A DNA stretch of 64,000 bases from a virus: the IMG/VR virus record IMGVR_UViG_2866807700_000004, positions 5,121-69,120 of that record; one strand, given 5' to 3'. Of the stretch, positions 8,536 to 31,802 are shown one piece after another. The notes beneath the pieces were generated by a model that had not been told where the DNA came from, made no database searches, and saw nothing but the letters and a program-made list of their open reading frames with translations. Made by a program: the position numbers and the translations under genes. Positions within the stretch are counted from its first letter, which is position 1, and each line of letters begins with the position of its first letter.

Positions 8536-8750
8536 GGCACCCGCTCGTGCAGCAACTCATCAAGGCCCGGTACGCCCAGGACCTTAATCAGGCCCAGCTC
8601 GCCGAACGCATGGGCCGGTGGCCGTCCACGGTCGGCGCATGGGAGGCCGGCTCCCGCATTCCGAACATGGCGTCGCTCGACGAGTGGGCCGCCGCGCTTG
8701 GCCTCCGCATCACCCTCACACCAACCCCACCCACCCGGGAGACCTCATGA
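8532..8750 (+). CDS. XRE/Cro-type helix-turn-helix protein
   Basis: 'ARYAQDLNQAQLAERMG...TVGAWEAGSRIPN'. Confidence 0.85.
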   Translation: MRHPLVQQLIKARYAQDLNQAQLAERMGRWPSTVGAWEAGSRIPNMASLDEWAAALGLRITLTPTPPTRETS

Positions 8751-9031
8751 ACCTGCGTCTACGTGTCCTCTTCACCGCGGCAGGCGCCGCTGGTGTGCTG
8801 GCGCTCGCCAGCGGTTGCGCGAAGATGACCGAGCCGTTCAACGACGCGCCGATCAAGTCCAAGGACGACAGCGCGGCCGAGGTCTACTCGATGCCGGACG
8901 GCTTCTCGAACGTCGCCACTAAGTGCGACCGGCACGGCAACCGGATCTACGTCGTCTACCACGGCGACAATCCTTACGGCGCGCTCAACGTCGTCCCGCA
9001 GGACCCCTCCTGTAAGAGGTCCACGCCGTGA
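8747..9031 (+). CDS. lipoprotein
   Basis: Basic N-terminus, hydrophobic stretch, lipobox LASGC. Confidence 0.75.
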   Translation: MNLRLRVLFTAAGAAGVLALASGCAKMTEPFNDAPIKSKDDSAAEVYSMPDGFSNVATKCDRHGNRIYVVYHGDNPYGALNVVPQDPSCKRSTP

Positions 9032-9585
9032 CTGGGCGCGACGACAACGACATCACGGCGATGCTGCCGCCCGTCGAGTACGAGCCTGAGCGGCGCCGCG
9101 GCCACCATGCCGACGCCCCCCGGTGGCGGACTCTCCTGGACGACCTGTGCCGCTGGATCGTCGGTCACAGGGCCGCGTTCTGTGGGCTGGTCGCGTGCCT
9201 CGCTGCGGCGGCCATGTTCGGCGGCTACGTCGCCGGTCTCCCAGCCAGCGCCGACCCTGCCTCACCCCCGGCCGCCGGGGTGACGGAGACACCACCCGGA
9301 GCCCTCGACGCTCCGCCACCCGCGCCCGGACCGTCACGTATCCGCACGCCCACGGCCCCGGCGGCCACCGTGAAGCCCCGCCCCCGCCGGACAGAACAGG
9401 CAACCCGGCCTGGAACACCGGCTCCGACCCGGGCCGAGCCGTCACCGTCTGCGACGCAGACGTCCCCGCCGCCGGACGGCGGTAAGGACGACGACCCGCC
9501 CCCGGGTGGCGGAGGCACGGGTGGCGGCGAAACACAGAGTCCGCCTCCACCAGGCTCACCCACCCCGAAGGGGCCGGCCAAGTGA
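9028..9585 (+). CDS. single-pass membrane protein with Pro/Thr-rich tail
   Basis: One hydrophobic segment followed by a P/T/A/G-rich region; GTGA overlaps. Confidence 0.65.
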   Translation: MTGRDDNDITAMLPPVEYEPERRRGHHADAPRWRTLLDDLCRWIVGHRAAFCGLVACLAAAAMFGGYVAGLPASADPASPPAAGVTETPPGALDAPPPAPGPSRIRTPTAPAATVKPRPRRTEQATRPGTPAPTRAEPSPSATQTSPPPDGGKDDDPPPGGGGTGGGETQSPPPPGSPTPKGPAK

Positions 9586-9998
9586 ACGAACTCCACGGCG
9601 GTGAGGCTCCGGTCCCGGGCGCGCGCGTCGAGGCCATCCGGGAGGGCCTGGCCGTAGCGCTCGAGACGGCGATCCCAGGCCCGTGGGTCGACAGGGCCGC
9701 CACCGTCCTCGCCCCGATCGTCACAGGGCTCCGGACCGGCCCGGTCACCGCGGTCCCGGACGACCTCCCGAAGCGGGACGGCACCGGCGCGCCGTTCGCG
9801 ACGATCGTGGCCCGGACAGAGCAGCACCTGCAGCGCTCGATCGACGCCGGCTGCAGCACCTGGGCCGACCTGGTGCGGGCCCGGCTGTACGCGGCGCTCG
9901 CCGAAACCGACCCGGAGCGCCTCCACGCCGCCGTCCTGAACCTCGGGTCCACGTGCGAGGCGTGGGCCGGGGACCTCGCCCGACGGCAGGGGCTGTGA
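9582..9998 (+). CDS. hypothetical protein with degenerate MazG-like C-terminus
   Basis: 'TWADLVRARLYAALAETDPERLHAAVLNLGSTCEAW' resembles the phage TW..IL.EE..EALAE.DP..L..EL.Q motif but lacks the acidic residues. Confidence 0.5.
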   Translation: MNELHGGEAPVPGARVEAIREGLAVALETAIPGPWVDRAATVLAPIVTGLRTGPVTAVPDDLPKRDGTGAPFATIVARTEQHLQRSIDAGCSTWADLVRARLYAALAETDPERLHAAVLNLGSTCEAWAGDLARRQGL

Positions 9999-10213
9999 TG
10001 GCCCGCAAATTCGGTCAGGTCCTGACCCAGGTCGCCACTGGGACACCCGAAGGGCGGACCCGCTGCGGCCACACCGGCCCGGCGGTCGGCTGCCGGGTGT
10101 GCGAGGCCGCCCTGTCCCGTCAGCGCCGGCCCGGGCGGCTACGCGGCCGCGGCTGGACGAAGAGCGACAAGCCCCCCAAGCGGCGTCGCCGCAAATCCAG
10201 GAGGACGACATGA
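9998..10213 (+). CDS. small basic Cys-containing protein
   Basis: TGATG overlap; CGH...CRVC; Arg/Lys-rich tail. Confidence 0.5.
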   Translation: MARKFGQVLTQVATGTPEGRTRCGHTGPAVGCRVCEAALSRQRRPGRLRGRGWTKSDKPPKRRRRKSRRTT

Positions 10214-10869
10214 CCACCGCGACCGACCCCGCGACGCAGCTCCACAACCTGTCCACACTGCCGGACGACTCTTTCCGCACGCTCATCGAGAACAACCTCG
10301 ACCGGGACGAACACCCGTCCCTGTGGGACCTGCTGCTTCACCCGCAGATGGTCCGCCGAACCCACGCCGCGCTGGGATCGGCGTTCCGTGATGTCGAGGA
10401 CCAACTCGCCGAGCGCCGCGCCGACCTGGAGAGCTTCCGGCAGGAATGCCACCAGGCAGGCCCCGCAGGCAAGGACAAGTGGTTCGCCGCGCAGGGCGAG
10501 CATCAGGAATGGCGGCGCCGCGCGATCGGCTACCGACGCATCCTCCAGCGGCGCCTCAGCGAGGCCAAGAACGCCCTGAACAACGCGGCTGCTCTGCCGT
10601 CCCCACAGCCTGCCCCAGCCAACTCGGCACGGAAGACCCGGCAGGTGACGACCGTGTTCCGCCTCGCCTGGGTGATCTCCCAGCACCGCGACGAGACCCT
10701 CCGGCAGGGCATCGTCCCCGACGAGCACGACGTCGAGCTGTGGCGCGCCCTCGACCTGATCGAGCTCGACACCACCGACGGCCCCATCACCATCACCGAG
10801 TTCCTCGACGACGTCACCTCCAAGCCGGGCTTCACCCCGCCCGACCTGCCAGCCGGAGGACGTTCGTGA
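10210..10869 (+). CDS. hypothetical protein
   Basis: GGAGG RBS; ATGA/GTGA overlaps; helical product. Confidence 0.65.
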   Translation: MTTATDPATQLHNLSTLPDDSFRTLIENNLDRDEHPSLWDLLLHPQMVRRTHAALGSAFRDVEDQLAERRADLESFRQECHQAGPAGKDKWFAAQGEHQEWRRRAIGYRRILQRRLSEAKNALNNAAALPSPQPAPANSARKTRQVTTVFRLAWVISQHRDETLRQGIVPDEHDVELWRALDLIELDTTDGPITITEFLDDVTSKPGFTPPDLPAGGRS

Positions 10870-12663: not shown

Positions 12664-13535
12664 TGGTTCAGCTCACCTACTACGAGCCGACCGGACAGGC
12701 CGCGGATTCCCTGCCGCCCGAGCCCAGGTGGGTGCCAGCCCCAGACGATGCGCACACCTTGCGGCACGGCTACAACCTCGCTGACATCGAACGGCTCGCG
12801 CGGATCGCGGTGAGAGCGGCGAGGGCGCAGGCGATGGACTACCAGGACCGGTACGAAGCCGCCTGGTACGCGATCGTCGAAGGGATCTACACGGCCATTG
12901 ACGCCCCGGACCCGTGGGAGCTGAAGCGGCTCGGCGCGGACGCCGTGAACCGGCTCCAGCAGGACTACGGGCACACATGGGGTTACGACCGCCGAAACCC
13001 CGACGCCGGGTTCGAAGGCATGCGGGGATTCCGCAAGTACTGGGAACTCGACCGTCGCGCCCACCGCTCCTGCGAGGACGGGGTAGTGGATCGGGTAGCA
13101 CTGTGGCAGATCTGGGAACGGCTGTCCGCCACACATCAGGCGATGCTGCTCGCGCTGGCCGCCTACGAGGACCCCGTCGCAGCGTCGGCCGCGGTCGGGA
13201 AGCGCTACAACACCTTCAACACCCATCTGAAGAACGCCCGCCGCGAGTTCCTCACACTGTGGCACGAGGGCGAGACACCGTCGCGGTTCTGGGGCAAGGG
13301 CGACCGGCGCCGGGGCCGCCGTAGCGGTGTTCAGCTGCTGGTCAACCGGCGGCAGCAGCGCGAACGGCGCGCGTTGGCCGAGGTCGAACCGAAGCCAGCC
13401 AAGCCGCCTCGAACCCACTGCTCCAACGGGCACCGACTCGTCCCGGACATCCTCACGGCTGCCGGCAGGTGCAAGGCGTGCGGTCGTGACCGCAGCGCCC
13501 TTTACCGCGCGAAGAAGCGGGGGGCGGCTGCGTGA
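12663..13535 (+). CDS. sigma-70 region 4-like regulator with C-terminal Cys/His zinc motif
   Basis: 'LWQIWERLSATHQAMLL...YNTFNTHLKNARREF' is sigma region-4-like; 'RTHCSNGH...RCKAC' tail. Confidence 0.55.
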   Translation: MVQLTYYEPTGQAADSLPPEPRWVPAPDDAHTLRHGYNLADIERLARIAVRAARAQAMDYQDRYEAAWYAIVEGIYTAIDAPDPWELKRLGADAVNRLQQDYGHTWGYDRRNPDAGFEGMRGFRKYWELDRRAHRSCEDGVVDRVALWQIWERLSATHQAMLLALAAYEDPVAASAAVGKRYNTFNTHLKNARREFLTLWHEGETPSRFWGKGDRRRGRRSGVQLLVNRRQQRERRALAEVEPKPAKPPRTHCSNGHRLVPDILTAAGRCKACGRDRSALYRAKKRGAAA

Positions 13536-15156
13536 TCGGGATCGCAGGGTTCACCGGCGTCACATGGCGGGATGCGGCCGTGCAGGCGCGGCATGGCGAG
13601 GCCGCGCTGTGGAAGGCCGCGCAGGCGGTGACCAGCCAGCTGGCTGGTCGGATCGGCGAGCGTGCCGCGGTGGCGTGGGTCCACACTGCCGCCGTCGTCG
13701 ACCACGCTGGCCGCTATGGGCTCATCTCGGCCGAGAACCTCGACGATTCTGCTGCGATCCGGAAACAGGCTGAGCAGCTCGCCTCGTGCAACCCGGCGCT
13801 CGCCGGCTTCGCTGACCCTGCTGCGAACCCGATGTGGGACGCCGACCCTGGCGACGCGGCGGCCGACATCGCGGCCCTGTACGCCGAGCACACGACCGTG
13901 GACCTGCCGGGCGTCCCGGACGGGTACCGCATCGGTGACCTCTACCAGCAGCTCAGCGAAGAGGCGCGTAAGGGACGCGCGCTGTGCCAGACCCCGCCAT
14001 GGGTCACCGACCTGCTCCTGTCCCTGTCCCTCGACCATGCCGCCGACGAAGCCGGATGGGATGGACTGCGCTCGCTGAAGGTCATCGACCCGGCGTGCGG
14101 GACCGGGCACGTCCTAGTCGAGACTTTCCTGCGGCTGGAAGCGTGGCAGTGGCTGCACCCAGGGGCACCCCGCGTGCGCGGTGCCCTAGTGCCGGACGTG
14201 CTGGCGCAGGTCCACGGATGCGACCTGGACCCGTACGCGGCGCTGATCGCCCGGTACCGGCTGTGCGCCTTGGCCGCCGCGATGAGCGGCACCGACCTTG
14301 CCGGGCTACCCGCGGATCTGCCGGTGCAGGTGGCCACCGCAGATTCCCTGCTCGCCGACGATGAGCCATTGCTGGCGCGCGGTGCCTACGACGTGGTGGT
14401 GATGAACCCGCCCTACATCACCCCGAAGGACGCCCTGGCCCGGGACGCGGTCCGCGCCCGGTACCCGGACGTGTGCCACCGAAAGTACGCACTCTCACTG
14501 CCGTTCCACGCGCTGGCCAATGACCTGCTCAAGCCGGGAGGCTGGTGCGCGCAGCTCACCGCGAACAGCTTCATGAAACGAGAGTTCGGCAAGCCGTACG
14601 TCGAGAAGTACCTGTCAGGGCTGGACCTGCATTGGGTGATCGACACCTCCGGCGCCTACTCCCTGGCCACGGCACCCCCACCGTCATCCTCGTCAACCGC
14701 AACCAGCCCCCAACCGCGCCCATGGTGTCGACCGTGCGAGGCGCCCAAGGCGAACCCTCGGTTTCGGAACTCCCGGGCCGCGGCATTGTGTGGACACAGC
14801 TCCGCCACGCCGTCCGCGAACGCGACCAAGCCGCCCGCCTCGACGCGCTCCTGGACCGCAGCGACAGCCAGGAGCTGCACGCCGCGTCCGAGGAACCACC
14901 CCCGGTGCCGGTACCTGATGGAGACCGGCCGTCAGCGCAGGGCGCGCCCACTCCGAAGCGGAGACGTGCGGCACCGTCCGCAGTTGGCCAGCTCGATCTG
15001 CTCATCGAGGTGGCGGAAGAGGGAGCGGGCACGCAGCAGGCCCGGGTGGCGCAACGGCGACGGAGCCGCCTTAAAGGCGGCATCTCTGCGGGTTCGAATC
15101 CCGCCCCGGGCACCTGGCGGCAGGCCAAGCAGGCGAGCGACCGGGGGCCGAAATGA
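13532..15156 (+). CDS. PglX (BREX type 2)-like N6-adenine DNA methyltransferase, frameshifted at ~14660
   Basis: Motif I IDPACGTGH, motif IV NPPY, and PglX-type blocks GDLYQQLSEEARK, TANSFMKREFG, VIDTSGAY|PGHGTPTVIL split between two frames; the corrected frame stops at 15156, overlapping the next ATG. Confidence 0.85.
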
Positions 15157-18339: not shown

Positions 18340-19040
18340 CCGACGACGAAGCCGCGCCCGTCCGGCAGGTCGGCGCCGTCTGGTGCGCCGACCACGACCG
18401 GTGGGAATGCGTGAAGAACCGGCGCGCCAAACGCGGCGGAGGCCGCTGCCACCAGCCCGCCATCCCCGGCCTCGACCGCTGCTACCACCACGCCGGTTTC
18501 TCCGCCGAGGTCGCCAAGGCGCAGGGCGAAGCGATGGACGCGTGGACGGCCGCGTACCACGAGGTTGCAGTCACCCCGCAGCAAGCCATCATCGGCATGC
18601 TCAACATGTCGTGGTTCCGCGCGAACTTCTACGCTGGCTTGCTGGAGGAACAGGCACTGCGGGCCCAGTCAGACCGCGAGGAGAACGGCGAACCGTACGT
18701 GAAGGGCGCGCCGCCGGTAGGGGAAGGCGCCGGCCTCATCGGTCACACCTACTCCGCCGACAAGGAGTACGGGATCTTCGCGTCCGGCGAGGCGATCCGC
18801 GGCCTCGTCCAGCTCGAGGCGCAGGAACGCGACCGGGTCGTGAAGTACGCGAAGGTCGCGCATGAGATGGGCATCGCCGAACGCCAGATCCAGCTCGCCG
18901 AGCAGCAGGGCGCGATGCTCGCCGGCGCCGTCCGCAAGATCCTCGACGGCCTCAACCTCACCCCGGACCAGCAGCAGCTCGTCCCGCAGCTCGTCCCGTC
19001 CGTGCTCCGCGCCCTCGCCTCCGGCCACAACGCCGCATAG
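18336..19040 (+). CDS. terminase small subunit-like protein
   Basis: N-terminal C..RC..RCYHH zinc motif; C-terminal 'GIAERQIQLAEQQGAMLAGAVRKIL..LNLTPDQQ..VP' resembles actinophage TerS. Confidence 0.65.
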   Translation: MTDDEAAPVRQVGAVWCADHDRWECVKNRRAKRGGGRCHQPAIPGLDRCYHHAGFSAEVAKAQGEAMDAWTAAYHEVAVTPQQAIIGMLNMSWFRANFYAGLLEEQALRAQSDREENGEPYVKGAPPVGEGAGLIGHTYSADKEYGIFASGEAIRGLVQLEAQERDRVVKYAKVAHEMGIAERQIQLAEQQGAMLAGAVRKILDGLNLTPDQQQLVPQLVPSVLRALASGHNAA

Positions 19041-19047
19041 GAGAACC

Positions 19048-19353
19048 ATGAGCGACCTCACGATCCCACCCTCAGCGGCAGCGCTGGACGACCGCGCCGA
19101 CGTCGGCGGTGGCCTGTGCCCGCTCTGCAAGGTGTGCGCCGACCACCAGATCTCGCACACCTGCATCGTCCAGCCCGGCCCCCTCAGCGACGAGATCTTC
19201 AGCCACGTGCCCCACAGCGAGTTCCAGCCGCTCCACGCGCGCCTCGCAGCACACCCGGCTCGGCCGCTGGACGAGAACGGCGAACGCCGCGGCGTCGACC
19301 GCACCTGGTGCGTATGTGGCTGCACCACCGCCCGGAAGGAGCTCGACCGATGA
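19048..19353 (+). CDS. Cys/His hypothetical protein
   Basis: AGGAGA RBS; CPLC..C.DH...CVCGC. Confidence 0.6.
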   Translation: MSDLTIPPSAAALDDRADVGGGLCPLCKVCADHQISHTCIVQPGPLSDEIFSHVPHSEFQPLHARLAAHPARPLDENGERRGVDRTWCVCGCTTARKELDR

Positions 19354-19547
19354 GAGACCAGACAGGCGTCTGGGTTGCCAGATACGCCGACGGCTCGTCG
19401 ATCTGCCCGTTCGAGGAAGAGATCGACGCGCTCCGCCACGCGGTCGACAACCAGATGGATGTGACGTTCGTGCCCTGGGGCGAGGACGCACGCACCTACC
19501 GGCAGCCGCCCGAGCGGCCCAAGCAGCCCGCAGTGAGGGCGACCTGA
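19350..19547 (+). CDS. small hypothetical protein
   Basis: ATGA and TGATG overlaps. Confidence 0.6.
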   Translation: MRDQTGVWVARYADGSSICPFEEEIDALRHAVDNQMDVTFVPWGEDARTYRQPPERPKQPAVRAT

Positions 19548-20951
19548 TGGCCGCCCAACCCGCAAACGTGCTCCTGGCCGGCATCGTCGGATCCACCGCC
19601 TACGGTCTCGCCGGGCCCGGCTCCGACATCGACAGGCTCGGCGTGTACGCCGCCCCAACGACCGCGTTCCACGGCCTTCACCCGCCGACCGGCCGCGACG
19701 CCACCACGGTCACAACCAAGCCCGACGTGACCTTTCACGAGGCCGGGAAGTGCGCCGCGCTTTGCCTCGGGATGAACCCAACCGTCACGGAACTGATCTG
19801 GCTCCCGGACGGCCTGTACGAGACCCGCACTGCCCTCGGCGAGCAGCTCATCAGCATCCGGACCGCGTTCCTGTCCGCACGCCGGGTCAAAGACGCCTAC
19901 CTCGGCTACGCGGTCTCCCAGTTCAAACGGCTGGAGACCCGCGGCGACGGCTCCTTCAGCGCGGACACCCGCAAACGTACGGCCAAGCACGCCCGCCACC
20001 TCGCCCGGCTCGTCCACCAGGGGGGGCCTCCAGCTGTACCGCACCGGCCACCTTGACGTCCGCCTCGCCGACCCGCAGTGGTACCTGGACTTCGGTGAGC
20101 GCGTCGCCGGCGGAGACCTTGAGGAAGCGCGCTTCGTCCTGTCCGAGGCCGAGGTCGACTTTGCCGCCGCGCGCACACCTTTGCCTGACGAGCCCGACCG
20201 CGCCCGCGTCGAGGAATGGCTCCACTCCGTCCGCGCCGCCCATCTACCCGACCAGGCCAGGCCCTGCCCGCACGCGGCCGAGGCCGCCCGCCTCCACGAA
20301 GGCGAAGACCCCACACCCCGCGACCCGGGCTGCGAGCCGACGCCTGGGCAATGGCTGCACCGGTTCAACAGCGCGCCCCCGCAGCAGCGGCTCACCTGGG
20401 CGGAAGACATCCTGCGGCACGCGCGCGACAGCTCCCGGTGCCGGTTCGAGATGCGCCACGAAGACCAGATCAGCGAGCTAAGCGACCACGTAGAGGAACT
20501 CCAGCACCGCCCGGCCCCGGCTGACGCCGCCCTGTTCCTGGTGGACCTGGACGGCACCATGGCGCTCCGCCAGGACACCGACGACGTCCGCTCCCCATAC
20601 GACTGGGACCGCGTTGGCGAGGACGTCCCGCACACCCCGATCGTCACCGTCGTCCGCGCGCTCGATACCGCAGGGCACCGGATCATCTACCTGTCCGGCC
20701 GCTCGGAGGAGTGTCGCGCCGCGACCGGTGTGTGGATCGCCGCGCACATCGGCGTGTCAGGGGAGGCGCTGCTGATGCGCCCGGCCGGTGACCACCGCCC
20801 CGACCACGTGGTCAAGCGGGCGCTGTACGAGCGGTGGGTCGCGCCGGTCGGGCCCGTCACCGCCGTCCTCGACGACCGCGCCTCCGTCATCCGGATGTGG
20901 CGCGAAGACCTCGGCCTCACCGTCCTCCAAGTCGCTGAAGGGGACTTCTGA
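19547..20951 (+). CDS. RlaP/YcgL-like (PF10127-type) nucleotidyltransferase fused to a T4-PNK-type HAD 3'-phosphatase; frameshifted at G7 tract 20020-20026
   Basis: Pol-beta motif GSTAYG...SDID; one G fewer gives an open frame HQGGLQLYRTG...LPDEPDRARVEEWLHSVR, then the HAD motifs VDLDGT, LSGR, K, LDDR. Confidence 0.8.
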
Positions 20952-20953
20952 CC

Positions 20954-21370
20954 ATGTCCAGTGACCGGCAGCAGCTGCAGGACGCCGCGATGGCTGCCTT
21001 GGACACCATGCGCGCCGGCGACCGCGCCGCCACCGACCGCGCCCTCAACCAGCTCCTCGACGAGCACGGCCCCGCCGCCATCCCGATCGCGCTGATGCAC
21101 TGGTGCGACGCCGCGCTCGCGCCCATCATGCCTCCCGGGGGCGGGCCGGTTCGGCTGTCGTGGATGGACACCGTCACCGGCCGCGTCCAGGCCGGTGACA
21201 TTGGCGTGCCCGTCACCGAGCAGTGGGCCTGTCGACTCCTGGCCGCCCGGGCGAACGGCGACCGCGACATGTTCCTCGACCTCGTGAAGGCCGTGCCCGA
21301 CGAGGCGATCAACGCGCACATCGGCGCGATGGTCCAGATGGCCGCGTGCATCATCCAGGAGGCGCCATGA
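20954..21370 (+). CDS. hypothetical protein
   Basis: Clean ORF in the operon; stop overlaps the next ATG. Confidence 0.65.
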   Translation: MSSDRQQLQDAAMAALDTMRAGDRAATDRALNQLLDEHGPAAIPIALMHWCDAALAPIMPPGGGPVRLSWMDTVTGRVQAGDIGVPVTEQWACRLLAARANGDRDMFLDLVKAVPDEAINAHIGAMVQMAACIIQEAP

Positions 21371-21639
21371 CGCCCTCGGACTACTGGAACCTGGCGGACC
21401 GCTGGATCCTCGACGACCTCAACCGGGCTCTCGAAGACATGTGCCTCGTGTGCATGGGGCGGGGCTGTATCAACTGCCTGCCCGATCGGAGCCCCTTCTC
21501 AGCTGCGAACGCCGCAGAAGACTGCGAACCCGCTGATCCGGCTGGATGGCTCACCTGCACGGGGCCCGGGATCGACCGGCGCCGGGAGGTTGCAGCGGTG
21601 CAACGCATCCTCGCTGCCGCGCGGAGGGACTCGGACTGA
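21367..21639 (+). CDS. small hypothetical protein (CxxC-x4-CxxC)
   Basis: ATGA overlap; CLVCMGRGCINC. Confidence 0.55.
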   Translation: MTPSDYWNLADRWILDDLNRALEDMCLVCMGRGCINCLPDRSPFSAANAAEDCEPADPAGWLTCTGPGIDRRREVAAVQRILAAARRDSD

Positions 21640-22124
21640 TGCCTCGCTTCCTGATCAAGCCTGACCGGGCCCGGGATCTGTACATCGAGTGGTGGACGAT
21701 CGTCGACGCGCCCGTTGGGCACGGCACCCGCGCCGAGTGGGTAGCCGAAGGGATCGCCCCAGGCGGTCTCGACCGCGCGGACCGGACCGGGACATCCGCG
21801 TGCCCGCCGCTGGCCACCGGTGCGTGGGACGACGAAGAACTGATGGTCGCCGAGCCGCTCGGCCGGCAGCGGCTACTGCCGCGCGACCACCTCATCGACT
21901 ACACCCTCGCCCTGTACCGGCGGGCGGTCACCCAGGCGTACGGCATGACCCGCCCCATCGAGATCGACGACAACTACCCGCCAGCGACTCCGGAACGCCG
22001 GCGGGCTGTTCGTGTCCACTGGCGCCGTTGCCGCCGCTGCAACCCGGCCGGGAACCCGGCGCCGCTGCTCGTCGACGGCGCCGGCTACGCCCGCCGCCGC
22101 AAGGCCAGGAGGCGCCGCCGATGA
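21639..22124 (+). CDS. hypothetical protein
   Basis: TGATG overlap; GC3 bias. Confidence 0.6.
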   Translation: MPRFLIKPDRARDLYIEWWTIVDAPVGHGTRAEWVAEGIAPGGLDRADRTGTSACPPLATGAWDDEELMVAEPLGRQRLLPRDHLIDYTLALYRRAVTQAYGMTRPIEIDDNYPPATPERRRAVRVHWRRCRRCNPAGNPAPLLVDGAGYARRRKARRRRR

Positions 22125-22381
22125 CCTACATCAACCCCGAGGACTACGAGCCCGACGGCGAGGCCCTCGACCGGATGACACGTGCCCAGCTCGCCGAGCT
22201 ACCCGGCCCCGAGCGCACGGTCGCGGACGTCCTCGACGAGTGGAACCGCCGCGAGCACGGCGTCATCTCGTCCTCGCACGGCGCCGGGCTGTTCCTCGAC
22301 CTCCTCGCAGCCGAGGGGTACCGCGTCACTCCGATCGACGCGCCCGACCTGTCCGAACTCCTACCGCCGCCCACCGATTAG
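22121..22381 (+). CDS. hypothetical protein
   Basis: ATGA overlap; acidic product. Confidence 0.6.
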   Translation: MTYINPEDYEPDGEALDRMTRAQLAELPGPERTVADVLDEWNRREHGVISSSHGAGLFLDLLAAEGYRVTPIDAPDLSELLPPPTD

Positions 22382-22396
22382 GAACGGAGCCCCACC

Positions 22397-22984
22397 ATGC
22401 GCAAGATTCCGACGATCTTCGTCCGTGACTGGGAGAACGACCCCTCCCGCGTCACCCGCGAACCGAACCCCGACTGCGCCTGGGTGTTCGCCGGCGAGGG
22501 ACGCGCGACCCGCAAACTCGACGGGACCGCCACCCGTCTCGACGAGGACGGCCGGTGGTGGGGGCGCCGGGAGGTCAAGCCCGGCAAGACCCCGCCGCCC
22601 AACTTCCAGCTCGTTCAGGTCGATGACCGGACCGGGAAGCGCACGGGCTGGCAGCCGATCGAGGACACTCCGTACGCCAAAGTGCACGTCGAGGCGCTGA
22701 ACTTCGCCCTTGAGCATGGACCCCAATTCGAGTTGGGCACGTACGAGTTGTGCGGCCCGAAGATCAACCGTGACCCCGAGCAGTTCGGCGTGCACTTCCT
22801 GATCCGCCACGGCACCCACGAACTCGACGACGTCCCGCTCGACTTCGACGGCCTCGCCGCCTGGCTCCTGGCGCACCCGTACGAGGGCATCGTCTGGCAC
22901 CACCCGGACGGACGGCTCGCGAAGCTGAAGCGGCGTGACATCCCTGCCGAGCTCGCGCCGCATCGGGACACGGAAGCCGGATGA
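22397..22984 (+). CDS. ATP-dependent RNA ligase-like protein (DUF5565/C12orf29-like)
   Basis: Covalent nucleotidyltransferase motifs I KLDGT, III YELCG, IV EGIVW, V AKLK; N-terminal MRKIPTIF; no OB-fold DNA-ligase domain. Confidence 0.75.
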   Translation: MRKIPTIFVRDWENDPSRVTREPNPDCAWVFAGEGRATRKLDGTATRLDEDGRWWGRREVKPGKTPPPNFQLVQVDDRTGKRTGWQPIEDTPYAKVHVEALNFALEHGPQFELGTYELCGPKINRDPEQFGVHFLIRHGTHELDDVPLDFDGLAAWLLAHPYEGIVWHHPDGRLAKLKRRDIPAELAPHRDTEAG

Positions 22985-23172
22985 TCGTGACCTTGTACGC
23001 CTTCGGTCGTGAGGTCCTCTCCGTGTGCTGGACCCGCCCCGTCGCTCAGCCCGAGCCCGCGCAGGTGGAGGACGTTCGCCCGGACGCTGGCCCGTTCGGG
23101 TTCGGCGGCGGCACCTTCGGCACCCAAGAACGCGCCTGGCTGCCCGACACCGAACGCCCCATCGACGCATGA
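22981..23172 (+). CDS. small hypothetical protein
   Basis: ATGA overlap. Confidence 0.5.
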   Translation: MIVTLYAFGREVLSVCWTRPVAQPEPAQVEDVRPDAGPFGFGGGTFGTQERAWLPDTERPIDA

Positions 23173-23179
23173 GGACATC

Positions 23180-23542
23180 ATGACCACCGAACGCATCACC
23201 GCCACGAAGCGCTCCAGCATCCTCGCCGTGCCCCGCGAGATCCTGCTCGACCACGGCCTCGTCGAGCCGACCGAAGCCGAACGCGCCGAAGCGGAACGTT
23301 CCGCCGCCGAGTACCAGCGGCGGGCAGCGGCGCGCGCCGAGGTCCTCGTTGCCGCCCGTGAGCAGCTCGCCGCGATCACCGACCCGCTCGCCCGCACCAT
23401 TCTCGACCTCCACGATGAGGGGCACGACGGCACCTGCCAGGGCGATGACATCGACGGTTACGAGGCCGAACGCCCCGACTGGCCGTGCCGGACGGTCGAG
23501 GCCATCGCCGCGCACTACAGCATCCCGCTGGCGGTATCGTGA
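23180..23542 (+). CDS. hypothetical protein
   Basis: GAGGA RBS; LH...C.GDD...WPC.T motif. Confidence 0.6.
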   Translation: MTTERITATKRSSILAVPREILLDHGLVEPTEAERAEAERSAAEYQRRAAARAEVLVAAREQLAAITDPLARTILDLHDEGHDGTCQGDDIDGYEAERPDWPCRTVEAIAAHYSIPLAVS

Positions 23543-24036
23543 GCGCCGCATCGAACGACCTGCTGGAGTTCCTGCGGGCGCGCGGCTGGCCGAGGACGAG
23601 TGGTGGGCGCGCGAAGCCAGCCGCCTACGCGGCCAGGAAGGACAACCGGCCGGAGACCACTGGCAGTGGATCGACCCCGACACGGAACAGGTCCTCCTTG
23701 TTGACCCCGCCCAGAACGAATGCGTGGGAGAGGAAAGCGAGGGCATCTCGGTGAGCCTTCGGAGCAAGGGAGCACTATCCAACGCAGAACGTGGGAGACC
23801 TGCCCAACTTCGCGATCCACTACGCCGAGGAGGTCCCGACTACGGTCGCAAGTCACATCGTCCGCCATGGCCCGGCGCGCGTGCTGGCCGAAGTCGAGAC
23901 CAAGCGGCGGCTGATTGATCAGCACGTCGGCTACTCCGGCGGAGGCGACGACGATCACTGGCCCGTCCAGACGCTTCGTCTGCTCGCCCTGCCGTACGCA
24001 TCCCACCCCGACTACCGGCCCGAATGGCGTCCATGA
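23539..24036 (+). pseudogene. DUF6221-like protein broken by two frameshifts (~23583 and ~23769)
   Basis: 'DLLEFLRAR|LAEDE' start and 'HIVRHGPARVLAEVETKRRLI...LRLLALPYASHPDYRPEWRP' end lie in three frames. Confidence 0.7.
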
Positions 24037-24058
24037 ACCACCACGAGGGGAGCCGTCA

Positions 24059-25003
24059 TTGACCGAGCCTGCCGCCACCATCCCGACCAGCCCGGCCGAA
24101 GAACTCGCCCAGCTCGTCACCGAGCTCGTCGACGAGGTCACCACCGACGAGGCCGTCACCCGGTACAAGCAGGTCAGCCGCGGCGGCGGCCGCACCGTCA
24201 AGGTCGTCGACCCGGACGCCCGCCACATCACCCGCGACGTCGGCCTCCTCGATCAGCTCCACGCGATCAAGTCGGCGAAGGCGACGGTGCCGGTGCGGAT
24301 CTTCCAGTGGGTGAGCGACCACCAGGGGGAGGACGACCGATGCGAGTCGGCGAGGCAGGGGCTGAAATGCGCGCACGGCCGCTGGAAGCACGTCCGCACC
24401 GAGCAGCGCCCGGCCGGAAGGCTCGGCGTCGTCGCCGGCGGCGCGGCCGTCCCCGGCGGCAGCGCCGGATGGGACAGCGACGGCGCCCTCAACCCGCTCC
24501 GCTCTCTCGGGTTCGAATCCGCCAGCCCGGCCACCAGCGCCGTCGAACTGTACGACGACATCCGCCGCGGCATCGACCGGCTCCGCCGCGACCTCCGCCA
24601 AGCCGCGGGCCGCACCTGGGGCGGCCGCAAAGCGCCCTCAGACGCGCTCCGCGAATGCGTCGGGCTGCTCCTGGACGTCGACGACGACACCGCCCGAGAC
24701 GCCGTCCATCAGGTTCGGGGCTGGGTGTCGACGTGCCGGATCCGCCTCGGCTACGACGCCCCGATCGTCAAACTCCGCGACCTCGTCTGCGGGCAGTGCG
24801 GCGGAACGCTCCACGTCCGCGCCGACGCATCCACCGCCGTCTGGTGCGCCGGCTACCCGACCGCGCACGTGACCGGGCCCGGCTGGCCAGGGGACGAGTG
24901 GGGGCCGGTTGAGTACCCGGCCGAACCGGGATGCGGGGAACGGTACCCCCGCGGCTCCTGGATCAAGCTCCTCGAAGACGTAGCGAAAGCAGGTAACACA
25001 TGA
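24059..25003 (+). CDS. hypothetical protein with C-terminal zinc ribbon; last gene of the early + strand run
   Basis: TTG start after GAGGGGAG; CGQCGG...WC...C motif. Confidence 0.65.
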   Translation: MTEPAATIPTSPAEELAQLVTELVDEVTTDEAVTRYKQVSRGGGRTVKVVDPDARHITRDVGLLDQLHAIKSAKATVPVRIFQWVSDHQGEDDRCESARQGLKCAHGRWKHVRTEQRPAGRLGVVAGGAAVPGGSAGWDSDGALNPLRSLGFESASPATSAVELYDDIRRGIDRLRRDLRQAAGRTWGGRKAPSDALRECVGLLLDVDDDTARDAVHQVRGWVSTCRIRLGYDAPIVKLRDLVCGQCGGTLHVRADASTAVWCAGYPTAHVTGPGWPGDEWGPVEYPAEPGCGERYPRGSWIKLLEDVAKAGNT

Positions 25004-25327
25004 GCCATGCGCCCGGGCCCCAGCTCACGCCCGAGTTCACATCCGAACAACTCGAGCGCGCGACCGCCGCATTCCGACGCATCACTGAAGCGTTCAGTGC
25101 GATCGCGGGCGCGATTGAGCGCGCGGCCGGAGATCGATCTCCGCACTGAGATTCCGGAGCTCGGTCGGTCTTGATGGCTCACCGCTCGACCGTCCGGAGC
25201 GGGACGACGGTGCCGCAGCTCATTCTGAAGACCATCCATCCAGCGCCTAGCTGAGCCGAACACATGACCTTGGGGCTTCCTCAAAGACGCCCTGGCAAGA
25301 GAGACGCCCGGTCAAGCCTTGGGTACG

Positions 25328-26635
25328 TCATGAGCTGCCGCTGGAGCCCTCACCCGAATCGTATTGGAGCACGGGTTTCTCCTTTTCTGCTTTCTGGGGG
25401 TCCGGTGCTTTTCTGTTGATTGAGAGTTCCTTCCAGAGGTCCTCGATGTTTTTGTTCTCGAATGTCACCTGGTAGATCAACTTGGCATACAGAGGGAGAA
25501 ACTTGAACGACCAGCCTCCGGCGCACACCACGGCGTTGCGATGTGGGTCCGGAAGTCGATCCAAGACGGCGTTGTGGTCACCGAAATGCGGATGCACGCA
25601 GTTTCCGGAGTAGACTGGATAAGGTTCGACCCCCAAACAGTGATTTTTGATGAAGTCAACGGTTTTCTTCACATCGTCACGAGCTGGTACGAGGTCCTGT
25701 CTCTCGTCCGTCCGGTTGGGCAACTTCATGGTTTTCTGCGTGGTCGACTCCCAGCCGATTTTAGCGAGGTTGGGCGGTCCCCATGGGACGGGCGGGAAGC
25801 CATAGTACAGTTCGTCTGTTCTTTCACCGAAATAGACCCACATGCCCGGGTAGATGTTGTCGATTTTCGGATCGGTCGCATAGTAGTCGTAAACCATGTC
25901 CCAGACCGCGTAATTGAGTTTGTATTTCTTCTGGGGCTGGATGTTCTTCAGAACCTCGTTGGTATAGGCACCGCACGCGATGACACATTTCTTGGCCGTG
26001 TATGTTCTCGGTGTGCCTGCATCGCTGAATCTGTCTTTATCCTCCTTCACTGTCGCCTTAACGGTCACTGATTCGTTGTCCACTTTAACGGCCGTGACCT
26101 CGGCCTTTTCGATGAGGGTCGCGAGGTTTCGTTGCGCCAGCTTGTAGAAGGTCCGCAGGATCAACGGTACGTTCATCACGCCATTGTCTGGCGAGAAGTA
26201 TCCATCGTACTTGAAGTTCGTGAGATGAAATTCTTTCTCGATCTCCTCTTTGCTTAGTGGTCGGCATGGCCTGCCCAGCTTCGTGAGAGCTTCCTTTACC
26301 TTTTTGTATTCGCCCTGCGCGCCCGCCGTGGATTTATTGCTTCCGAAGTTCAGTTGCCCTGTCATCCAGAGCAGCTTCTCCCCGGAGTCTTTCTCCAGTT
26401 CATGCCACATCTTCAGGGAATTGATGGCTCTTTGGGTGTCCTCCGGTGTGGAATACAGGATTCGGAACATCCGCATGATGTCGCCGGAACTTCCCGAATG
26501 ATGGAAGAACTTCCGTGCCTCCAGGACCAGGACCTTCTTCCCCTTCCTTGCGCTGTGGCATGCGGTGGCGAGCCCGATGGCTCCGCCGCCGACGACGACC
26601 AGGTCGTACTGTGGCCCTTGGGCGTTACTGTTCAT
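25328..26635 (-). CDS. FAD-dependent oxidoreductase, monomeric sarcosine/pipecolate oxidase family
   Basis: Rossmann motif YDLVVVGGGAIG..A, 'GSSG...RMFR', a Cys at the flavinylation-equivalent position (GNCVHP), 'GGWSFKF'; markedly lower GC than the flanks. Confidence 0.85.
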   Translation of the reverse strand: MNSNAQGPQYDLVVVGGGAIGLATACHSARKGKKVLVLEARKFFHHSGSSGDIMRMFRILYSTPEDTQRAINSLKMWHELEKDSGEKLLWMTGQLNFGSNKSTAGAQGEYKKVKEALTKLGRPCRPLSKEEIEKEFHLTNFKYDGYFSPDNGVMNVPLILRTFYKLAQRNLATLIEKAEVTAVKVDNESVTVKATVKEDKDRFSDAGTPRTYTAKKCVIACGAYTNEVLKNIQPQKKYKLNYAVWDMVYDYYATDPKIDNIYPGMWVYFGERTDELYYGFPPVPWGPPNLAKIGWESTTQKTMKLPNRTDERQDLVPARDDVKKTVDFIKNHCLGVEPYPVYSGNCVHPHFGDHNAVLDRLPDPHRNAVVCAGGWSFKFLPLYAKLIYQVTFENKNIEDLWKELSINRKAPDPQKAEKEKPVLQYDSGEGSSGSS

Positions 26636-27428
26636 CTCAGTCTCCCGTCCTTGTCGTGATGGGTGATCGTCGGTCCCGCGGAAGGTGTCCGGCCGATCGA
26701 CACGGCGCCTGATGGCACCGGCCTCCCCCTCTACCTGCCTCACTTTGAACAAACTCCACCTCAACAGCGCGTTCGTACTCCCTTCGGGGCGGAGGTCAAC
26801 GACCAGCAGCGGTTTATCTCCAGGTCCCGATCAGCACTCCACCCTGGGCAAACGGGCACAGAGCCGGCCGTGCGCAATCCGCGTTACGTGGGCGGGTTCT
26901 GGCATTGTGAGGAGGCGAAGCGGTTCGGGGACCTCATGCCTGACTGCGAGCGGATAGTGCTGGCCTGAGCTGCCGGGTACACGGCCCCGGCTGCTTGGGC
27001 CCGTGGGGCTACGAACGAGGCCCACACCGACCAGCACCATCCCTACATGCCCGAGCAACTCGCCGTGCGGGAAGAGGGCCCGCACTTCTACGCCTACCCA
27101 ACCCACGAGGCGTACCTCGAAGGCCGGCACCTGTGGCGCGCGTACCGCCGCAACGAACGCCTGCACGCCGACGAGGCCGCCGTCCGGTGGGCGCTCATCG
27201 ACCAGCGCATCCTTCGCGCGGCGGGCGATTGAATCCACATGCGTCGTGACGAAGCGCGACCTACAGGGGAGGAGGATCCGAGCCTTGATCGGGTCGGGGC
27301 GGCGACGGCGCGAGACGAGGCACCCGGCGGGACGGCGGAAGCCAGCATCGGCCGGATCGCGCAGAGCCTCTTGAAACGGAACCGCTGGCGCTGGTTCCCC
27401 CGGCGCGCTGAGGGCTCGGGTCCCTCGA

Positions 27429-27502
27429 AGTGGAGTGGAGCAGTTCGGTAGCTCGCTGGGGTCATAATCCAGAGGTCGGCGGTTCGAATCCGTCCTCCGC
27501 CA
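27429..27502 (+). tRNA. tRNA-Met(CAT), initiator-like, CCA not encoded
   Basis: Acceptor AGTGGAG/CTCCGCC with a 1:72 mismatch; D arm GAGC/GCTC; anticodon arm CTGGG-GTCATAA-TCCAG; T arm GGCGG-TTCGAAT-CCGTC. Confidence 0.85.
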
Positions 27503-27651
27503 CGGTCCAGGTTGGCGTGAGCCGTACCGCGCTCAGGTTCCGTGACGGACGTGGCCCGAAGCTGAGCGGCAACGGCGTGGTCGAGGGACCGGTCTCCGAC
27601 GCGGCCGTCACGGCCAAGGGGACCGGGACTCTCGGGCAGTTGGCAGGGCGA

Positions 27652-28683
27652 CTAGGACCCCCGGCGCTTCAACTCGTCATCGAAAAACTTGATCACCGAC
27701 GTCACAAGCATCAGGGCGATCACTGCGTTGACTCGCTTGTACTGCTTCCGTGAAACAGCATGGGCGCTCGGGTGGCGGCCGTAGTCCGCTGGTATCGGGT
27801 CGCCCTTGTCCGGCCAGTACTCGGCGTGCGCGCACCAGACCGGCGCGAACGTGAGCGCCGCACGGAAGTGGAAGTCGTCGAAGTCGAAGGTGACTCCGCT
27901 GTCCTTGAACTTGTTCTTTGTGAGTTTCACGCGCACCTCCTTGCTGAAGAACTTCCGCATCACGCTGTCGAGGAGGTTTGCTGCCAGCGCCTGAGCAGCG
28001 TTGGTGTGGCCGCTGCGCAAAGCCTTGACGCAGTCCAGGGCGAACTCACGCTCGTCGGCGAGGCGCTGGTGCGTGACCCCATTGAGGACCGTCTCACAGT
28101 CGGTGACGATGCCCTTCCAACGACTGCTGAGCACCCGGCGTCGATCAGAAGGCGTCTTGGCCGCGAAGATCGCTGCGATGATCTCGGGGCCGGGAACCCG
28201 AAGGACGGGGATGCCCTCGTGCGCGAGCATGTGCTCGAACTCGTCCCAGTCACGGGGCCGCGCCTCACCCCAGTTGGGCGGGAAGAGATTCTGAATGGTC
28301 ACGCTGAGCCGCGACAGGGCGGGCACCAACTGGGACCGCATCACCCTGTCTATGCCCTCGGCGATTTCCCGAAAGGCGGGACTGGGAGTGTTGAACATGC
28401 TTCGAGGGATGGGCACCTTAAAAATCGAATTCAAGCGCTCGGCCGTGGCGCGGAGGCGGAGGATCTCCGGCGACACCTGCGTTTTGAAGTGCGGGACCTT
28501 GATGAGGTTCAGATTTCGCTGCCACAAAGGGCTCAAGAACTGGTTCAGAGGCTGCGCGCGTCGCCGCTGCATCCCCGTGAACGCTTCGCTCAGCGGACGT
28601 CCCCGCCGGGCCGACCCGGCAGCAGACTCCTCGTCGGCGCCTGACTCGTTCTCGGGGGTGTCGGTGTCCTCGGGGGTGCTCAC
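27652..28683 (-). CDS. antisense moron with C-terminal HEPN-like RxxxxH motif
   Basis: Lower-GC ORF; 'GRHPSAHAV' near the C-terminus followed by a helical tail. Confidence 0.65.
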   Translation of the reverse strand: MSTPEDTDTPENESGADEESAAGSARRGRPLSEAFTGMQRRRAQPLNQFLSPLWQRNLNLIKVPHFKTQVSPEILRLRATAERLNSIFKVPIPRSMFNTPSPAFREIAEGIDRVMRSQLVPALSRLSVTIQNLFPPNWGEARPRDWDEFEHMLAHEGIPVLRVPGPEIIAAIFAAKTPSDRRRVLSSRWKGIVTDCETVLNGVTHQRLADEREFALDCVKALRSGHTNAAQALAANLLDSVMRKFFSKEVRVKLTKNKFKDSGVTFDFDDFHFRAALTFAPVWCAHAEYWPDKGDPIPADYGRHPSAHAVSRKQYKRVNAVIALMLVTSVIKFFDDELKRRGS

Positions 28684-28780
28684 GTCGTCATTGTGAGCCT
28701 TGCTCCGTCTGCTGGCGACTCGATTGTTTGCTTTCGCGTGACCGAACGTGGCGGGCGTGGCCAGGTGGCACCAGTAGGCC

Positions 28781-29707
28781 ATGAGCCGCGTCTACTTCCA
28801 CTCACCGTCCGGCACCGCCGAACTGGCGCCGAACACGCCCACGCTAGCGTGATCGTCCGGCGCATCGCCGCCGGGGCCGTGGACGCGTTCCACCACCATG
28901 AGCGGCTCCGCGAGCTGCTGAATCCCGCGCATGACATGGCTCGTGCGGACACCTCCGGCGAGATGATCCGGTGGGCGTTCTGGTTCGACAGGTCTCTCAC
29001 TGTCAGCGATGGGTCCTTGCCCCTGCTCGCCTACCAGGGGCACCCGATCGACGCGTTCTCCCTCGTTCTCAACACGGCGATCGCCGTCGGCGGTGACGCG
29101 GTGAAGCTCCTGGCCCGGCTCCATGGCCAGTGCGAGCTTCACGGCTACGTGGAGGGCCCGAACCGCGCCCTGGCTCGCCGACATCATCGACCAGGGACTG
29201 GACGACGGCGTCATGCGCCGCTCCCTGCGGTACCAGCCGCACCCCGACATCCCGCAGGAGGAGTGGCCGACCCGGGACCTTGGCTGGGACGACGTCACTG
29301 CGTTCCTCCGCGCCCGCGACGACGAACCCGTCGTCATGTCCGACAGCACCATGGACGGGTTCCCCAACGAGTTCGTAGCCGAATGGCGGCCACCCGCCGG
29401 TACCGACCTGCGGCCTGACTGGGCGGCCGAGGCTCCAGAGGAGTGGACGGCTCTCGATGAGACCGAGCGCGCCGATTGGAAACAGACGCGTGTTGGTGAT
29501 CTCTGGGCTGAGCTACCCGAGTCCGAACGGTGGACTCTCGCCATGGCCGGGCTCCGGCTCCGAAGCGAGCGCGGAGCGCTGCTTGAGCTGACCCCGGACG
29601 GCTGGGCCGACTACAGGTTCGGGCACAGCCTGACCGCGTTCGACCTGTACGCCGACGACTACCGAGCCAAGATCGAGGAAGCCCTTGGTGTCGCCTCTGC
29701 TCCCTGA
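28781..29707 (+). CDS. hypothetical protein, frameshifted at 29168-29170
   Basis: 'LHGYVEGPNRA|WLADII' becomes continuous when one C is removed. Confidence 0.6.
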
Positions 29708-30794: not shown

Positions 30795-31802
30795 GTGCAC
30801 ATCCGAAGACCAGTCCCGCCCATGGCCGCGACCAGCATCGAGCACATCCCCGAGGAGTGGGCCTGCTCGGGCGGGTGCCGGTACGAGCCCAAGTTCGACG
30901 GGTTCCGCTGCATCGCCAACGTGAACGATGACGGCGGCGTGCAACTGTGGTCCCGCAACCTCAAGCGCCTCAACGACGCGTTCCCGGAGATCGTGTCCGC
31001 CGTTCACGACACGCTCCCGCCGGCCACCGTGGTGGATGGCGAGATCGTCCGCTGGTCCGCCGACGGCCGCCTCGACTTCTCCGCCCTCCAACGCCGCCAC
31101 GTCGCCGGCCGCCGACGCGCCGACCTCGCGATCACCGAGCCCTGCCACTACGTCGTGTTCGACCTCCTCGAAGCGGCGGGGGAGGACCTGCGGCCTGCGC
31201 CGCTGTCCGAGCGCCGCGCCGAGCTCGAGCAGCTCCTGGGCGACCTTCCCGGCACGTCCCGCGTCGTGCTGTGCCCGCAGCTCCGCGACATCGGCGAGGC
31301 GCGGCTGTGGTTCGAGCTGCTCGTCGCACAGGGCGTGGAGGGCCTGGTGGTGAAGGCCGCGGACGACCCGTACCGGGAGGGACGGCGCGGCTGGTGGAAG
31401 GTCCGGCACCGGGTCACGACCGAAGCGATCGTTGGTGGGGTCACGGGGCCGGTAGATGCGCCATGTACGCTGCTCCTCGGCCGCTACGGGAGCGAAGGCC
31501 GGCTGCGTGTAGTGGCGCGATCGACGCCGCTGGAGGCCCGCGACCGGCTGAGGCTGGGTGCCGTGCTCGTCCCGGCGGGCGATGAGCATCCGTGGCCGGT
31601 GGAGCTACCAGCCGGCTGGGCGGGCGGCCTGCCCGGCGCAGGGGAGCCGATCCAGTACACGAGGGTCGTGCCCGAGATGGTTGTGGAGATCAGCGCCGAC
31701 GCCGCAGTGGAGCGCGGCCGGTGGAGGCATGCGGTGCGGTTCGTGCGGCTACGCGCGGAGTTGGATCCGATGCTTGTTCCCAGAGACCTGGGCCTAGAGT
31801 GA
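30795..31802 (+). CDS. ATP-dependent DNA ligase (compact LigC/LigD-ligase type)
   Basis: PM.A start, motif I EPKFDGFR, III DGEIV, IIIa VVFDLL, IV EGLVVK, V WWKVR; OB-fold tail ending 'RH.VRFVRLR'. Confidence 0.9.
   Translation: MHIRRPVPPMAATSIEHIPEEWACSGGCRYEPKFDGFRCIANVNDDGGVQLWSRNLKRLNDAFPEIVSAVHDTLPPATVVDGEIVRWSADGRLDFSALQRRHVAGRRRADLAITEPCHYVVFDLLEAAGEDLRPAPLSERRAELEQLLGDLPGTSRVVLCPQLRDIGEARLWFELLVAQGVEGLVVKAADDPYREGRRGWWKVRHRVTTEAIVGGVTGPVDAPCTLLLGRYGSEGRLRVVARSTPLEARDRLRLGAVLVPAGDEHPWPVELPAGWAGGLPGAGEPIQYTRVVPEMVVEISADAAVERGRWRHAVRFVRLRAELDPMLVPRDLGLE

Follow-up and report, generated by a model that had tools for sequence, protein, structure and literature searches.

The 64-kb stretch of DNA analyzed here (hereinafter the window) carries a gene combining an RlaP-family nucleotidyltransferase (NTase) with a predicted RNA 3′-phosphatase of the HAD_PNKP family, a gene for a small RNA ligase of the RLIG1/C12orf29 type and, farther downstream, a diverged initiator-type tRNA-Met (Table 1). 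All four elements lie on the plus strand where an earlier note on this DNA, made from the sequence alone, had placed them. The window corresponds to positions 11264-75263 of contig C55 in a genome (G000) of 9.38 Mb in 421 contigs, with ~70% G+C. Its genes are almost all on the plus strand, and PHROG matches to RecT, terminase, portal, head protease and capsid, and tape measure point to a prophage of the siphovirus type; the nearest relatives of its proteins are from Actinomadura and Spirillospora. The window is thus most likely a siphovirus-type prophage in an Actinomadura/Spirillospora-like genome, with the candidate repair genes in its early region. A megablast comparison of positions 19000-27600 with the phage collection returned no match.

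Table 1. Candidate RNA-repair genes and neighboring features of the window (positions are those of the window)
Feature	Positions	Strand	Remarks
Predicted RlaP Pol-beta NTase core, 5′ part of the RlaP-HAD gene, 169 aa	19547-20056	+	PF10127, PHROG 388
G7 homopolymer with +1 frame shift	20020-20026	+	alignment to the homologue P0004 switches frame here
RlaP C-terminal helical part, ~90-aa insert and predicted HAD_PNKP 3′-phosphatase	20027-20951	+	PF25109, PHROG 505
138-aa protein, no known family	20954-21370	+	starts 3 nt past the HAD stop
Two small open reading frames (~162 and ~89 aa)	21636-22381	+	no Pfam/PHROG family match
Predicted minimal RLIG1/C12orf29-type RNA ligase, 195 aa	22397-22984	+	PF17720, PHROG 14301
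DAO-family FAD (flavin adenine dinucleotide) oxidoreductase, intact	25328-26764	-	PF01266, E 2.9e-34; markedly lower GC
Diverged initiator-type tRNA-Met(CAU)	27429-27502	+	ARAGORN (27429-27503), Rfam
376-aa gene, convergent on tRNA-Met	27652-28782	-	no Pfam, PHROG or PADLOC match
ATP-dependent DNA ligase (PF01068)	30795-31802	+	separate from the RNA ligase

An RlaP-phosphatase gene interrupted by a frameshift

The domain assignments for RlaP, HAD and the ligase are secure. Residues 3-155 of the first open reading frame (ORF) match the Pfam RlaP family (E 8.4e-19; 68.7 bits, cut-off 23), and the same product matches the PHROG family annotated as 'nucleotidyltransferase'; it carries the GSTAYG...SDID motif (GS...DxD), of which G14, S15, D26 and D28 are invariant across 21 homologues, so that the Pol-beta NTase recognized in the earlier note holds. 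This frame stops at 20056, with out-of-frame residues following a G tract. A second frame, open by position 19980 at the latest, runs to 20951, and it is this frame, rather than the NTase ORF itself, that continues the protein with the RlaP C-terminal helical part (reaching ~20250), an insert of ~90 residues common to the homologues P0004, P0030 and P0032, and a HAD_PNKP domain at ~20535-20948 (PF25109, E 9.2e-41, 139.7 bits against a cut-off of 27.6) with the motif FLVDLDGT. The DLDGT of this domain aligns with the phosphatase domain of Pnkp1 (4xrp, E 2.4e-18), and the domain also matches the T4 Pnk phosphatase domain (1ltq, E 5.6e-14; also 5uj0). One source gene caller had called the HAD product separately as a 256-aa protein (P0003) with a TTG start at 20181.

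The relationship of the two frames is clarified by P0004, an intact 473-aa metagenomic homologue that spans both at 79-88% identity: its residues 2-158 align in the first frame (88% identical) and 158-473 in the next, the join falling between HQG and GLQLY, at the G7 run. Only one other G/C run in the 64 kb reaches seven or more. In six relatives the corresponding sequence is CAGGGCCTC or CAGGGGCTC, that is, G3 or G4, which indicates that the tract has expanded in the window and is one G too long; with G6 or G3 at 20020-20026 the gene would be a single ORF of ~467 aa. On this comparison 19547-20951 was probably meant to encode one polypeptide. Hence, the earlier statement that the NTase is joined to a DxDGT phosphatase stands as regards both domains and needs amending as regards their frames, which the G7 shift separates. 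As the frameshift cuts off the C-terminal half of the NTase, the latter is, barring an assembly error that added the extra G, probably inactive. We also considered programmed frameshifting at the G7 run and regard it as unlikely, the tract not being conserved as a slippery site in the six relatives. An AlphaFold2 (AF2) model of P0004 was poor (predicted local distance difference test [pLDDT] 68 overall, with the N-terminal 94 residues below 50) and was left out of the fold search.

The fusion recurs outside the window. Among the matches listed, 33 of 120 clusters combine RlaP and HAD_PNKP in one protein, mostly of ~370 aa, once in the reverse order (P0051); the remainder of the list has the usual partner of this HAD domain, a P-loop kinase (the 297-aa Pnkp). 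By its domain composition, RlaP appears to have replaced the kinase in the fusion, and in the window protein it occupies the place of the N-terminal P-loop 5′-kinase of Pnkp. The host genome has no other copy of RlaP or HAD_PNKP.

In two Actinomadura-type relatives, P0030 and P0032, the place of the HAD domain is taken by another module: their C-termini match positions 20975-21364 at 68-74% identity (tblastn), so that a homologue of the 138-aa protein encoded just after the HAD domain is fused directly to the RlaP C-terminus. A further homologue lies downstream of P0004 (on L002). Beyond this the 138-aa protein has no match in Pfam, PHROG or PADLOC, and ESM Atlas returned only unnamed actinomycete clusters. 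A match of the HAD hidden Markov model (HMM) to 20954-21370 was rejected as an artefact, two of the training sequences having contained the 138-aa domain. PADLOC likewise recovered nothing for any gene of the repair block or for the antisense 376-aa neighbor.

A minimal RLIG1-type RNA ligase

The 195-aa product of 22397-22984 matches the Pfam RLIG1 family with 41.7 bits (cut-off 25; partial profile coverage, 192-269 of 324) and, over its full length, the PHROG family 'RNA ligase' (2.8e-47). Its motifs comprise K40 (in TRKLDGT), GTYELCGPK, YEGIVWHH and AKLK; K40 aligns with the catalytic K73 of the Yasminevirus C12orf29 ligase (PDB 9c6l, E 6.8e-8). K40 is invariant across 25 homologues, as are GTYEL.GP, which includes E117, and YEGIVWHH, which includes E163; the first lysine of AKLK (K176) is nearly so. 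An AF2 model (pLDDT 92.3) has 9c6m/9c6l as its top Foldseek matches (E 2.5e-12, TM 0.72), with the Naegleria and T4 RNA ligases far behind and any DNA ligase matched weakly. By family, catalytic lysine and modeled fold, this is predicted to be a true RLIG1/C12orf29-type RNA ligase, in agreement with the ligase proposed in the earlier note. RLIG1/C12orf29 enzymes join 5′-phosphate to 3′-OH RNA ends and favor nicks in tRNA anticodon loops, the joining having been demonstrated with the human ligase and with several homologues from viruses and bacteria (10.1101/2024.04.24.590974). The window ligase shares with human HsRnl and the Yasminevirus enzyme the family, the catalytic lysine, the two glutamate motifs and the fold; at 195 aa it is shorter than both (277 and 325 aa), and the accessible part of that source names no homologue of its size class among the tested enzymes.

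No 5′-kinase in the window

T4 Pnkp and Rnl1 work by a heal-then-seal logic with a 5′-phosphate/3′-OH ligase, and the HAD phosphatase of the window belongs to the same family as those of T4 Pnkp and of the actinomycete and actinophage Pnkp proteins (kinase-HAD, ~297 aa; 1ltq, 4xrp; E 1e-14 to 1e-18, DxDGT). The window system differs from the T4 one in having RlaP in the position of the N-terminal P-loop 5′-kinase and a ligase of another family. A Walker A motif (GxxxxGK[ST]) was found in no coding frame of the 64 kb, and an HMM of the Pnkp kinase matched nothing at E <= 0.1 in the window and nothing in the two related prophage regions described below; the remark in the earlier note that no 5′-kinase is visible is borne out at this level. 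The missing kinase is the main mechanistic gap: the genes would complete only breaks that already bear a 5′-phosphate, or would rely on an unlinked kinase.

Gene neighborhoods of RlaP and the ligase

RlaP and the ligase are neighbors in three related prophages: the window, a syntenic prophage of Spirillospora sp. CA-294931 (L050) and one of Actinomadura geliboluensis (L290). Their spacing is ~0.6-1.4 kb (1.4 kb in the window, ~0.6 kb in Spirillospora), and the genes between them are reshuffled in all three; even the two small ORFs of 21636-22381 are conserved yet reshuffled in L050 and L290 (tblastn, tblastx). In A. geliboluensis, a single 189-aa gene separates RlaP from the ligase, which is 85% identical to that of the window, and RlaP is fused to the homologue of the 138-aa gene. 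Neither relative has a HAD domain up to the ligase, and neither has a tRNA-Met in the parts read (~51 kb around L050, with only a tRNA-Cys far downstream, and 17 kb of L290); the co-occurrence of all three genes that the earlier note would have predicted for related phages was thus not recovered. It is RlaP and the ligase that stay together, the phosphatase and tRNA being accessory and variable.

In L050, NCBI annotates positions 4687-6774 as a 695-aa 'RNA ligase 1 family protein' (P0123) comprising RlaP and RLIG1. We considered this as a Rosetta-stone fusion of the two and rejected it as strong evidence: from about residue 391 (or 405) to 435 the composition is that of an out-of-frame segment, which matches the window ORF 22112-22381 in its +1 frame, and the coding sequence probably runs through an indel.

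RlaP proteins of the window subfamily also occur in complete operons of a different composition. The stretch 5262-10389 of an IMG/VR contig (L240) encodes a Rnl1-type ligase (PF09511), an RlaP (317 bits with the HMM of the window subfamily) and a Pnkp (AAA_33 + HAD_PNKP) in that order, and an initiator-like tRNA-Met, with G1·U72 as its first pair, lies 2.2 kb downstream on the same strand; Nocardiopsis codii (L094) has RlaP, a Rnl1-type ligase and Pnkp in order. Both differ from the window in keeping the kinase, in using a Rnl1-type ligase and in having RlaP as a separate gene.

An initiator-type tRNA in a variable island

The tRNA-Met(CAU) is identified by ARAGORN and by the Rfam tRNA model (52 bits, with 1:72 flagged as a non-pair). 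It has the traits of bacterial initiators, namely CAU, an unpaired 1:72 (A1·C72) and A11:U24, and it has G29-G31; of the three G:C pairs 29-31:39-41 the third is not kept, being G31·U39, and position 32 is G and not C. It is identical at 62 of 74 positions to the host initiator (on contig C383) and at 48 of 74 to the elongator, which upholds its earlier description as a variant initiator; the D arm and the 5′ strand of the anticodon stem are identical to those of the host initiator. At 6:67 and in the T stem the substitutions compensate each other, and the 1:72 mismatch is kept though both bases differ (C·U in the host, A·C in the window), which together show that the initiator-type character has been maintained and that the gene is no decaying copy.

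Neither the genome nor the viral collection contains another copy of the exact G32/U39 anticodon arm. Of the 116 initiator-like arms of viral contigs, the canonical form makes up 104; U39 is present in eight, U32 in four and G32 in none. The U39 change by itself was seen in 32 genomic stretches, for the most part actinomycete ones, and G32 is absent from the 37 cellular U39-type arms examined. In Allokutzneria (L255, L264, L265, L269) two to three tandem initiator tRNA copies have G31·U39 in place of G:C, suggesting that the U39 form is a normal or amplified initiator in some actinomycetes.

The tRNA lies 4.4 kb from the ligase, beyond the antisense, low-GC oxidoreductase gene, in an island of lower GC (25.0-28.8 kb; 0.62-0.65) for which the Spirillospora prophage has no equivalent. 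The oxidoreductase itself is absent from that prophage and is likely recently acquired cargo. At the matching spot of L290 (13420-17148) stand antisense genes for Schlafen-like (SLFN_AlbA_2) and Abi_C proteins, so that the site looks like a hot spot for defense cargo, and this in a prophage with RNA-repair genes of its own. Given the position in the island and the lack of a tRNA-Met in the stretches read from the relatives, the tRNA is only weakly tied to the repair genes. We regard the tRNA as functional-looking and separately acquired; it is at most a parallel 'replacement tRNA' strategy outside the gene block. For the 376-aa gene convergent on it, ESM Atlas gave only unnamed actinomycete clusters, and the idea that it encodes a HEPN protein found no support in the family searches.

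Farther upstream the prophage encodes a DNA methyltransferase of the Eco57I/N6_Mtase type (13532-15030, plus strand) and a second tRNA (15040-15112, plus strand). The latter has the anticodon UAA and a short variable arm and is called Leu by ARAGORN; it scores 45 bits with Rfam when searched alone and was missed in a 13-kb run at the gathering threshold. A type-I 'tRNA-Leu' is odd, and the UUA codon is rare and regulated in actinomycetes. Between the ligase and the island, 23915-25003 has a DUF7340/7341 lead from ESM Atlas.

A probable kinase-less variant of a known RNA-repair kit

Taken together, the genes are best read, with somewhat better than even confidence, as the known phage RNA-repair kit in a form without a kinase, which would dephosphorylate, extend and seal broken RNA. 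The PNKP-type HAD phosphatase, judging by its family, would remove the 3′-phosphate; RlaP, which needs a 3′-OH, would then restore one or two nucleotides; and the RLIG1-type ligase, if it acts like other members of its family, would seal the 3′-OH to a 5′-phosphate, typically in a tRNA anticodon loop. The breaks served would be those that already have a 5′-phosphate, with an unlinked kinase needed otherwise. The order of the first two steps draws on recent biochemistry: Pseudomonas RlaP adds one or two nucleoside monophosphates to an RNA 3′-OH and does not use 3′-phosphate ends (10.64898/2025.12.29.696909), so that a built-in 3′-phosphatase would supply exactly the step that RlaP requires. The addition is known for the Pseudomonas enzymes, and we infer it for the window RlaP from the family.

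Several observations weigh against this interpretation. The RlaP-HAD gene is frameshifted in the window and the HAD domain is lost in the two relatives, which suggests weak selection on the full set, and, since the three prophages are related, their shared gene order may reflect common descent and not selection. The window encodes a phosphatase and a ligase and no kinase, and the usual anticodon nucleases that leave a 3′-phosphate also leave a 5′-OH. Most loci of the ligase (57 genomic, 19 viral and three phage) have none of the putative partners nearby: RlaP is near it only in Spirillospora, a HAD-like match only in the viral locus L133, and a kinase in none, leaving 56 of 57, 18 of 19 and all three loci, respectively, with no RlaP, HAD or kinase. 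The RlaP-HAD fusion, for its part, is solitary among housekeeping genes in all eight cellular loci examined (L064-L066, L284-L286, L288 and L289), with no ligase or kinase within 7 kb, and the stand-alone RlaP relatives of Kitasatospora and Streptomyces have unrelated chromosomal neighbors. These absences are soft, as the RlaP, HAD and kinase HMMs are subfamily-specific and Rnl2 and RtcB ligases were left unscreened in most loci. Possibly, the kit is decaying or non-functional in this lysogen.

The alternative that survives best, tentative and on the unlikely side, is that there are two independent functions: RlaP-HAD would be a self-contained rebuilder of RNA 3′ ends (for instance, of clipped tRNA tails), the ligase an unrelated solo gene, and their proximity a matter of the packing of accessory early genes. 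The solitary fusions and the nearly always solo ligase agree with this, the absence of a kinase would be natural if no ligation follows, and RlaP adds just one or two nucleotides. Set against it, the RlaP-ligase neighborhood survives rearrangement in three prophages, the window RlaP subfamily is found in operons with a ligase and Pnkp, and the characterized RlaP had the 5′ half of a cleaved tRNA as its preferred substrate, ahead of the natural 3′ end (10.64898/2025.12.29.696909).

A related and doubtful proposal is that the RlaP-HAD_PNKP protein is an autonomous 'dephosphorylate-then-rebuild' RNA 3′-end enzyme, free of kinase and ligase in cells, that was recruited beside a minimal RLIG1 ligase here, the 138-aa protein being an alternative end module. 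Were this so, the cellular role of the enzyme could be, for example, the restoration of tRNA tails or of other toxin-trimmed ends; the pairing in the prophage would counter nucleases that excise nucleotides and leave a 5′-phosphate; and 20954-21370 would encode an alternative end-recognition or end-healing module.

The heal-seal-replace module of the earlier note, taken here as a system in which phosphatase-NTase, ligase and variant initiator tRNA are co-selected against nucleases cutting tRNA-fMet, is improbable in its full form; its three protein domains do belong to families whose action on RNA ends has been shown by experiment, and the RlaP-ligase linkage holds in three prophages, but the HAD domain and the tRNA are variable. 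In its favor, the tRNA is initiator-derived and kept foldable by its compensatory changes, and those at 32 and 39 adjoin the known VapC cut region. On one viral contig, L240, an initiator-like tRNA moreover accompanies RlaP, Pnkp and Rnl1, and phage tRNAs with anticodon-loop changes have been proposed to escape anticodon nucleases (eLife 2023, PMC10264068). The window tRNA resembles the latter in being a phage-borne copy of a host tRNA with anticodon-arm substitutions and differs in being of the initiator type, which according to the survey in the same paper phages mostly avoid carrying, and in its G32. Against co-selection stand the lower-GC island that Spirillospora lacks, the lack of a tRNA-Met in the 17 kb read of the A. 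geliboluensis prophage, the 4.4 kb and the antisense gene between tRNA and ligase, the uniqueness of the exact arm in the two collections searched, and the finding that RlaP is nearby in just one of the 116 viral loci with an initiator-like tRNA.

Finally, the phosphatase, NTase and ligase might clean and fill the ends of phage DNA in a LigD-like manner together with the DNA ligase at 30795, since the prophage has RecT and that ATP-dependent enzyme, and T4-type Pnk phosphatase domains also act on DNA 3′-phosphates. This is highly improbable: the characterized RlaP enzymes do not use DNA acceptors (10.64898/2025.12.29.696909), RLIG1 enzymes are RNA-specific (10.1101/2024.04.24.590974), the small ligase groups with the RNA ligase 9c6l in both sequence and fold, and DNA sealing is covered by the separate DNA ligase.

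Relationship to known systems and significance

Among the closest precedents are the RlaP-associated RNA-repair operons (Burroughs and Aravind, 2016, as cited in PMC7824862 and 10.64898/2025.12.29.696909), such as the Pseudomonas rtcB-rlaP-rtcA operon. An NTase of the PF10127 family there adjoins an RNA ligase and an end-healing phosphoesterase, and its predicted role is to restore nucleotides lost at the break before sealing. Relative to what they describe, the window has RlaP covalently fused to a PNKP-type HAD domain in a frameshifted gene, a ligase of the RLIG1 type and not of the RtcB, Rnl1 or Rnl2 types, no kinase, and a setting in an actinomycete prophage. It is therefore not a new kind of system: it is a variant of an already described phage counter-defense kit, whose particular features are the covalent RlaP-HAD fusion, its association with a ligase of the RLIG1 type and the G32/U39 initiator tRNA.

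Phage RNA repair is already catalogued, and this locus does not alter its general picture; the lack of a kinase limits the range of nucleases to which the kit could respond. That RlaP stands beside an RLIG1-type ligase in three prophages of actinomycetes provides a genomic setting for a guess already in print, namely that viral C12orf29 homologues have a counter-defense role. The biochemistry of RlaP dates only from late 2025, and its need for a 3′-OH left open how the 3′-phosphate ends produced by ribotoxins are handled. The RlaP-HAD fusion would offer a single-polypeptide system for dephosphorylation followed by extension, and its recurrence in 33 clusters, in either domain order, provides direct genomic support for such a dephosphorylate-then-extend step.

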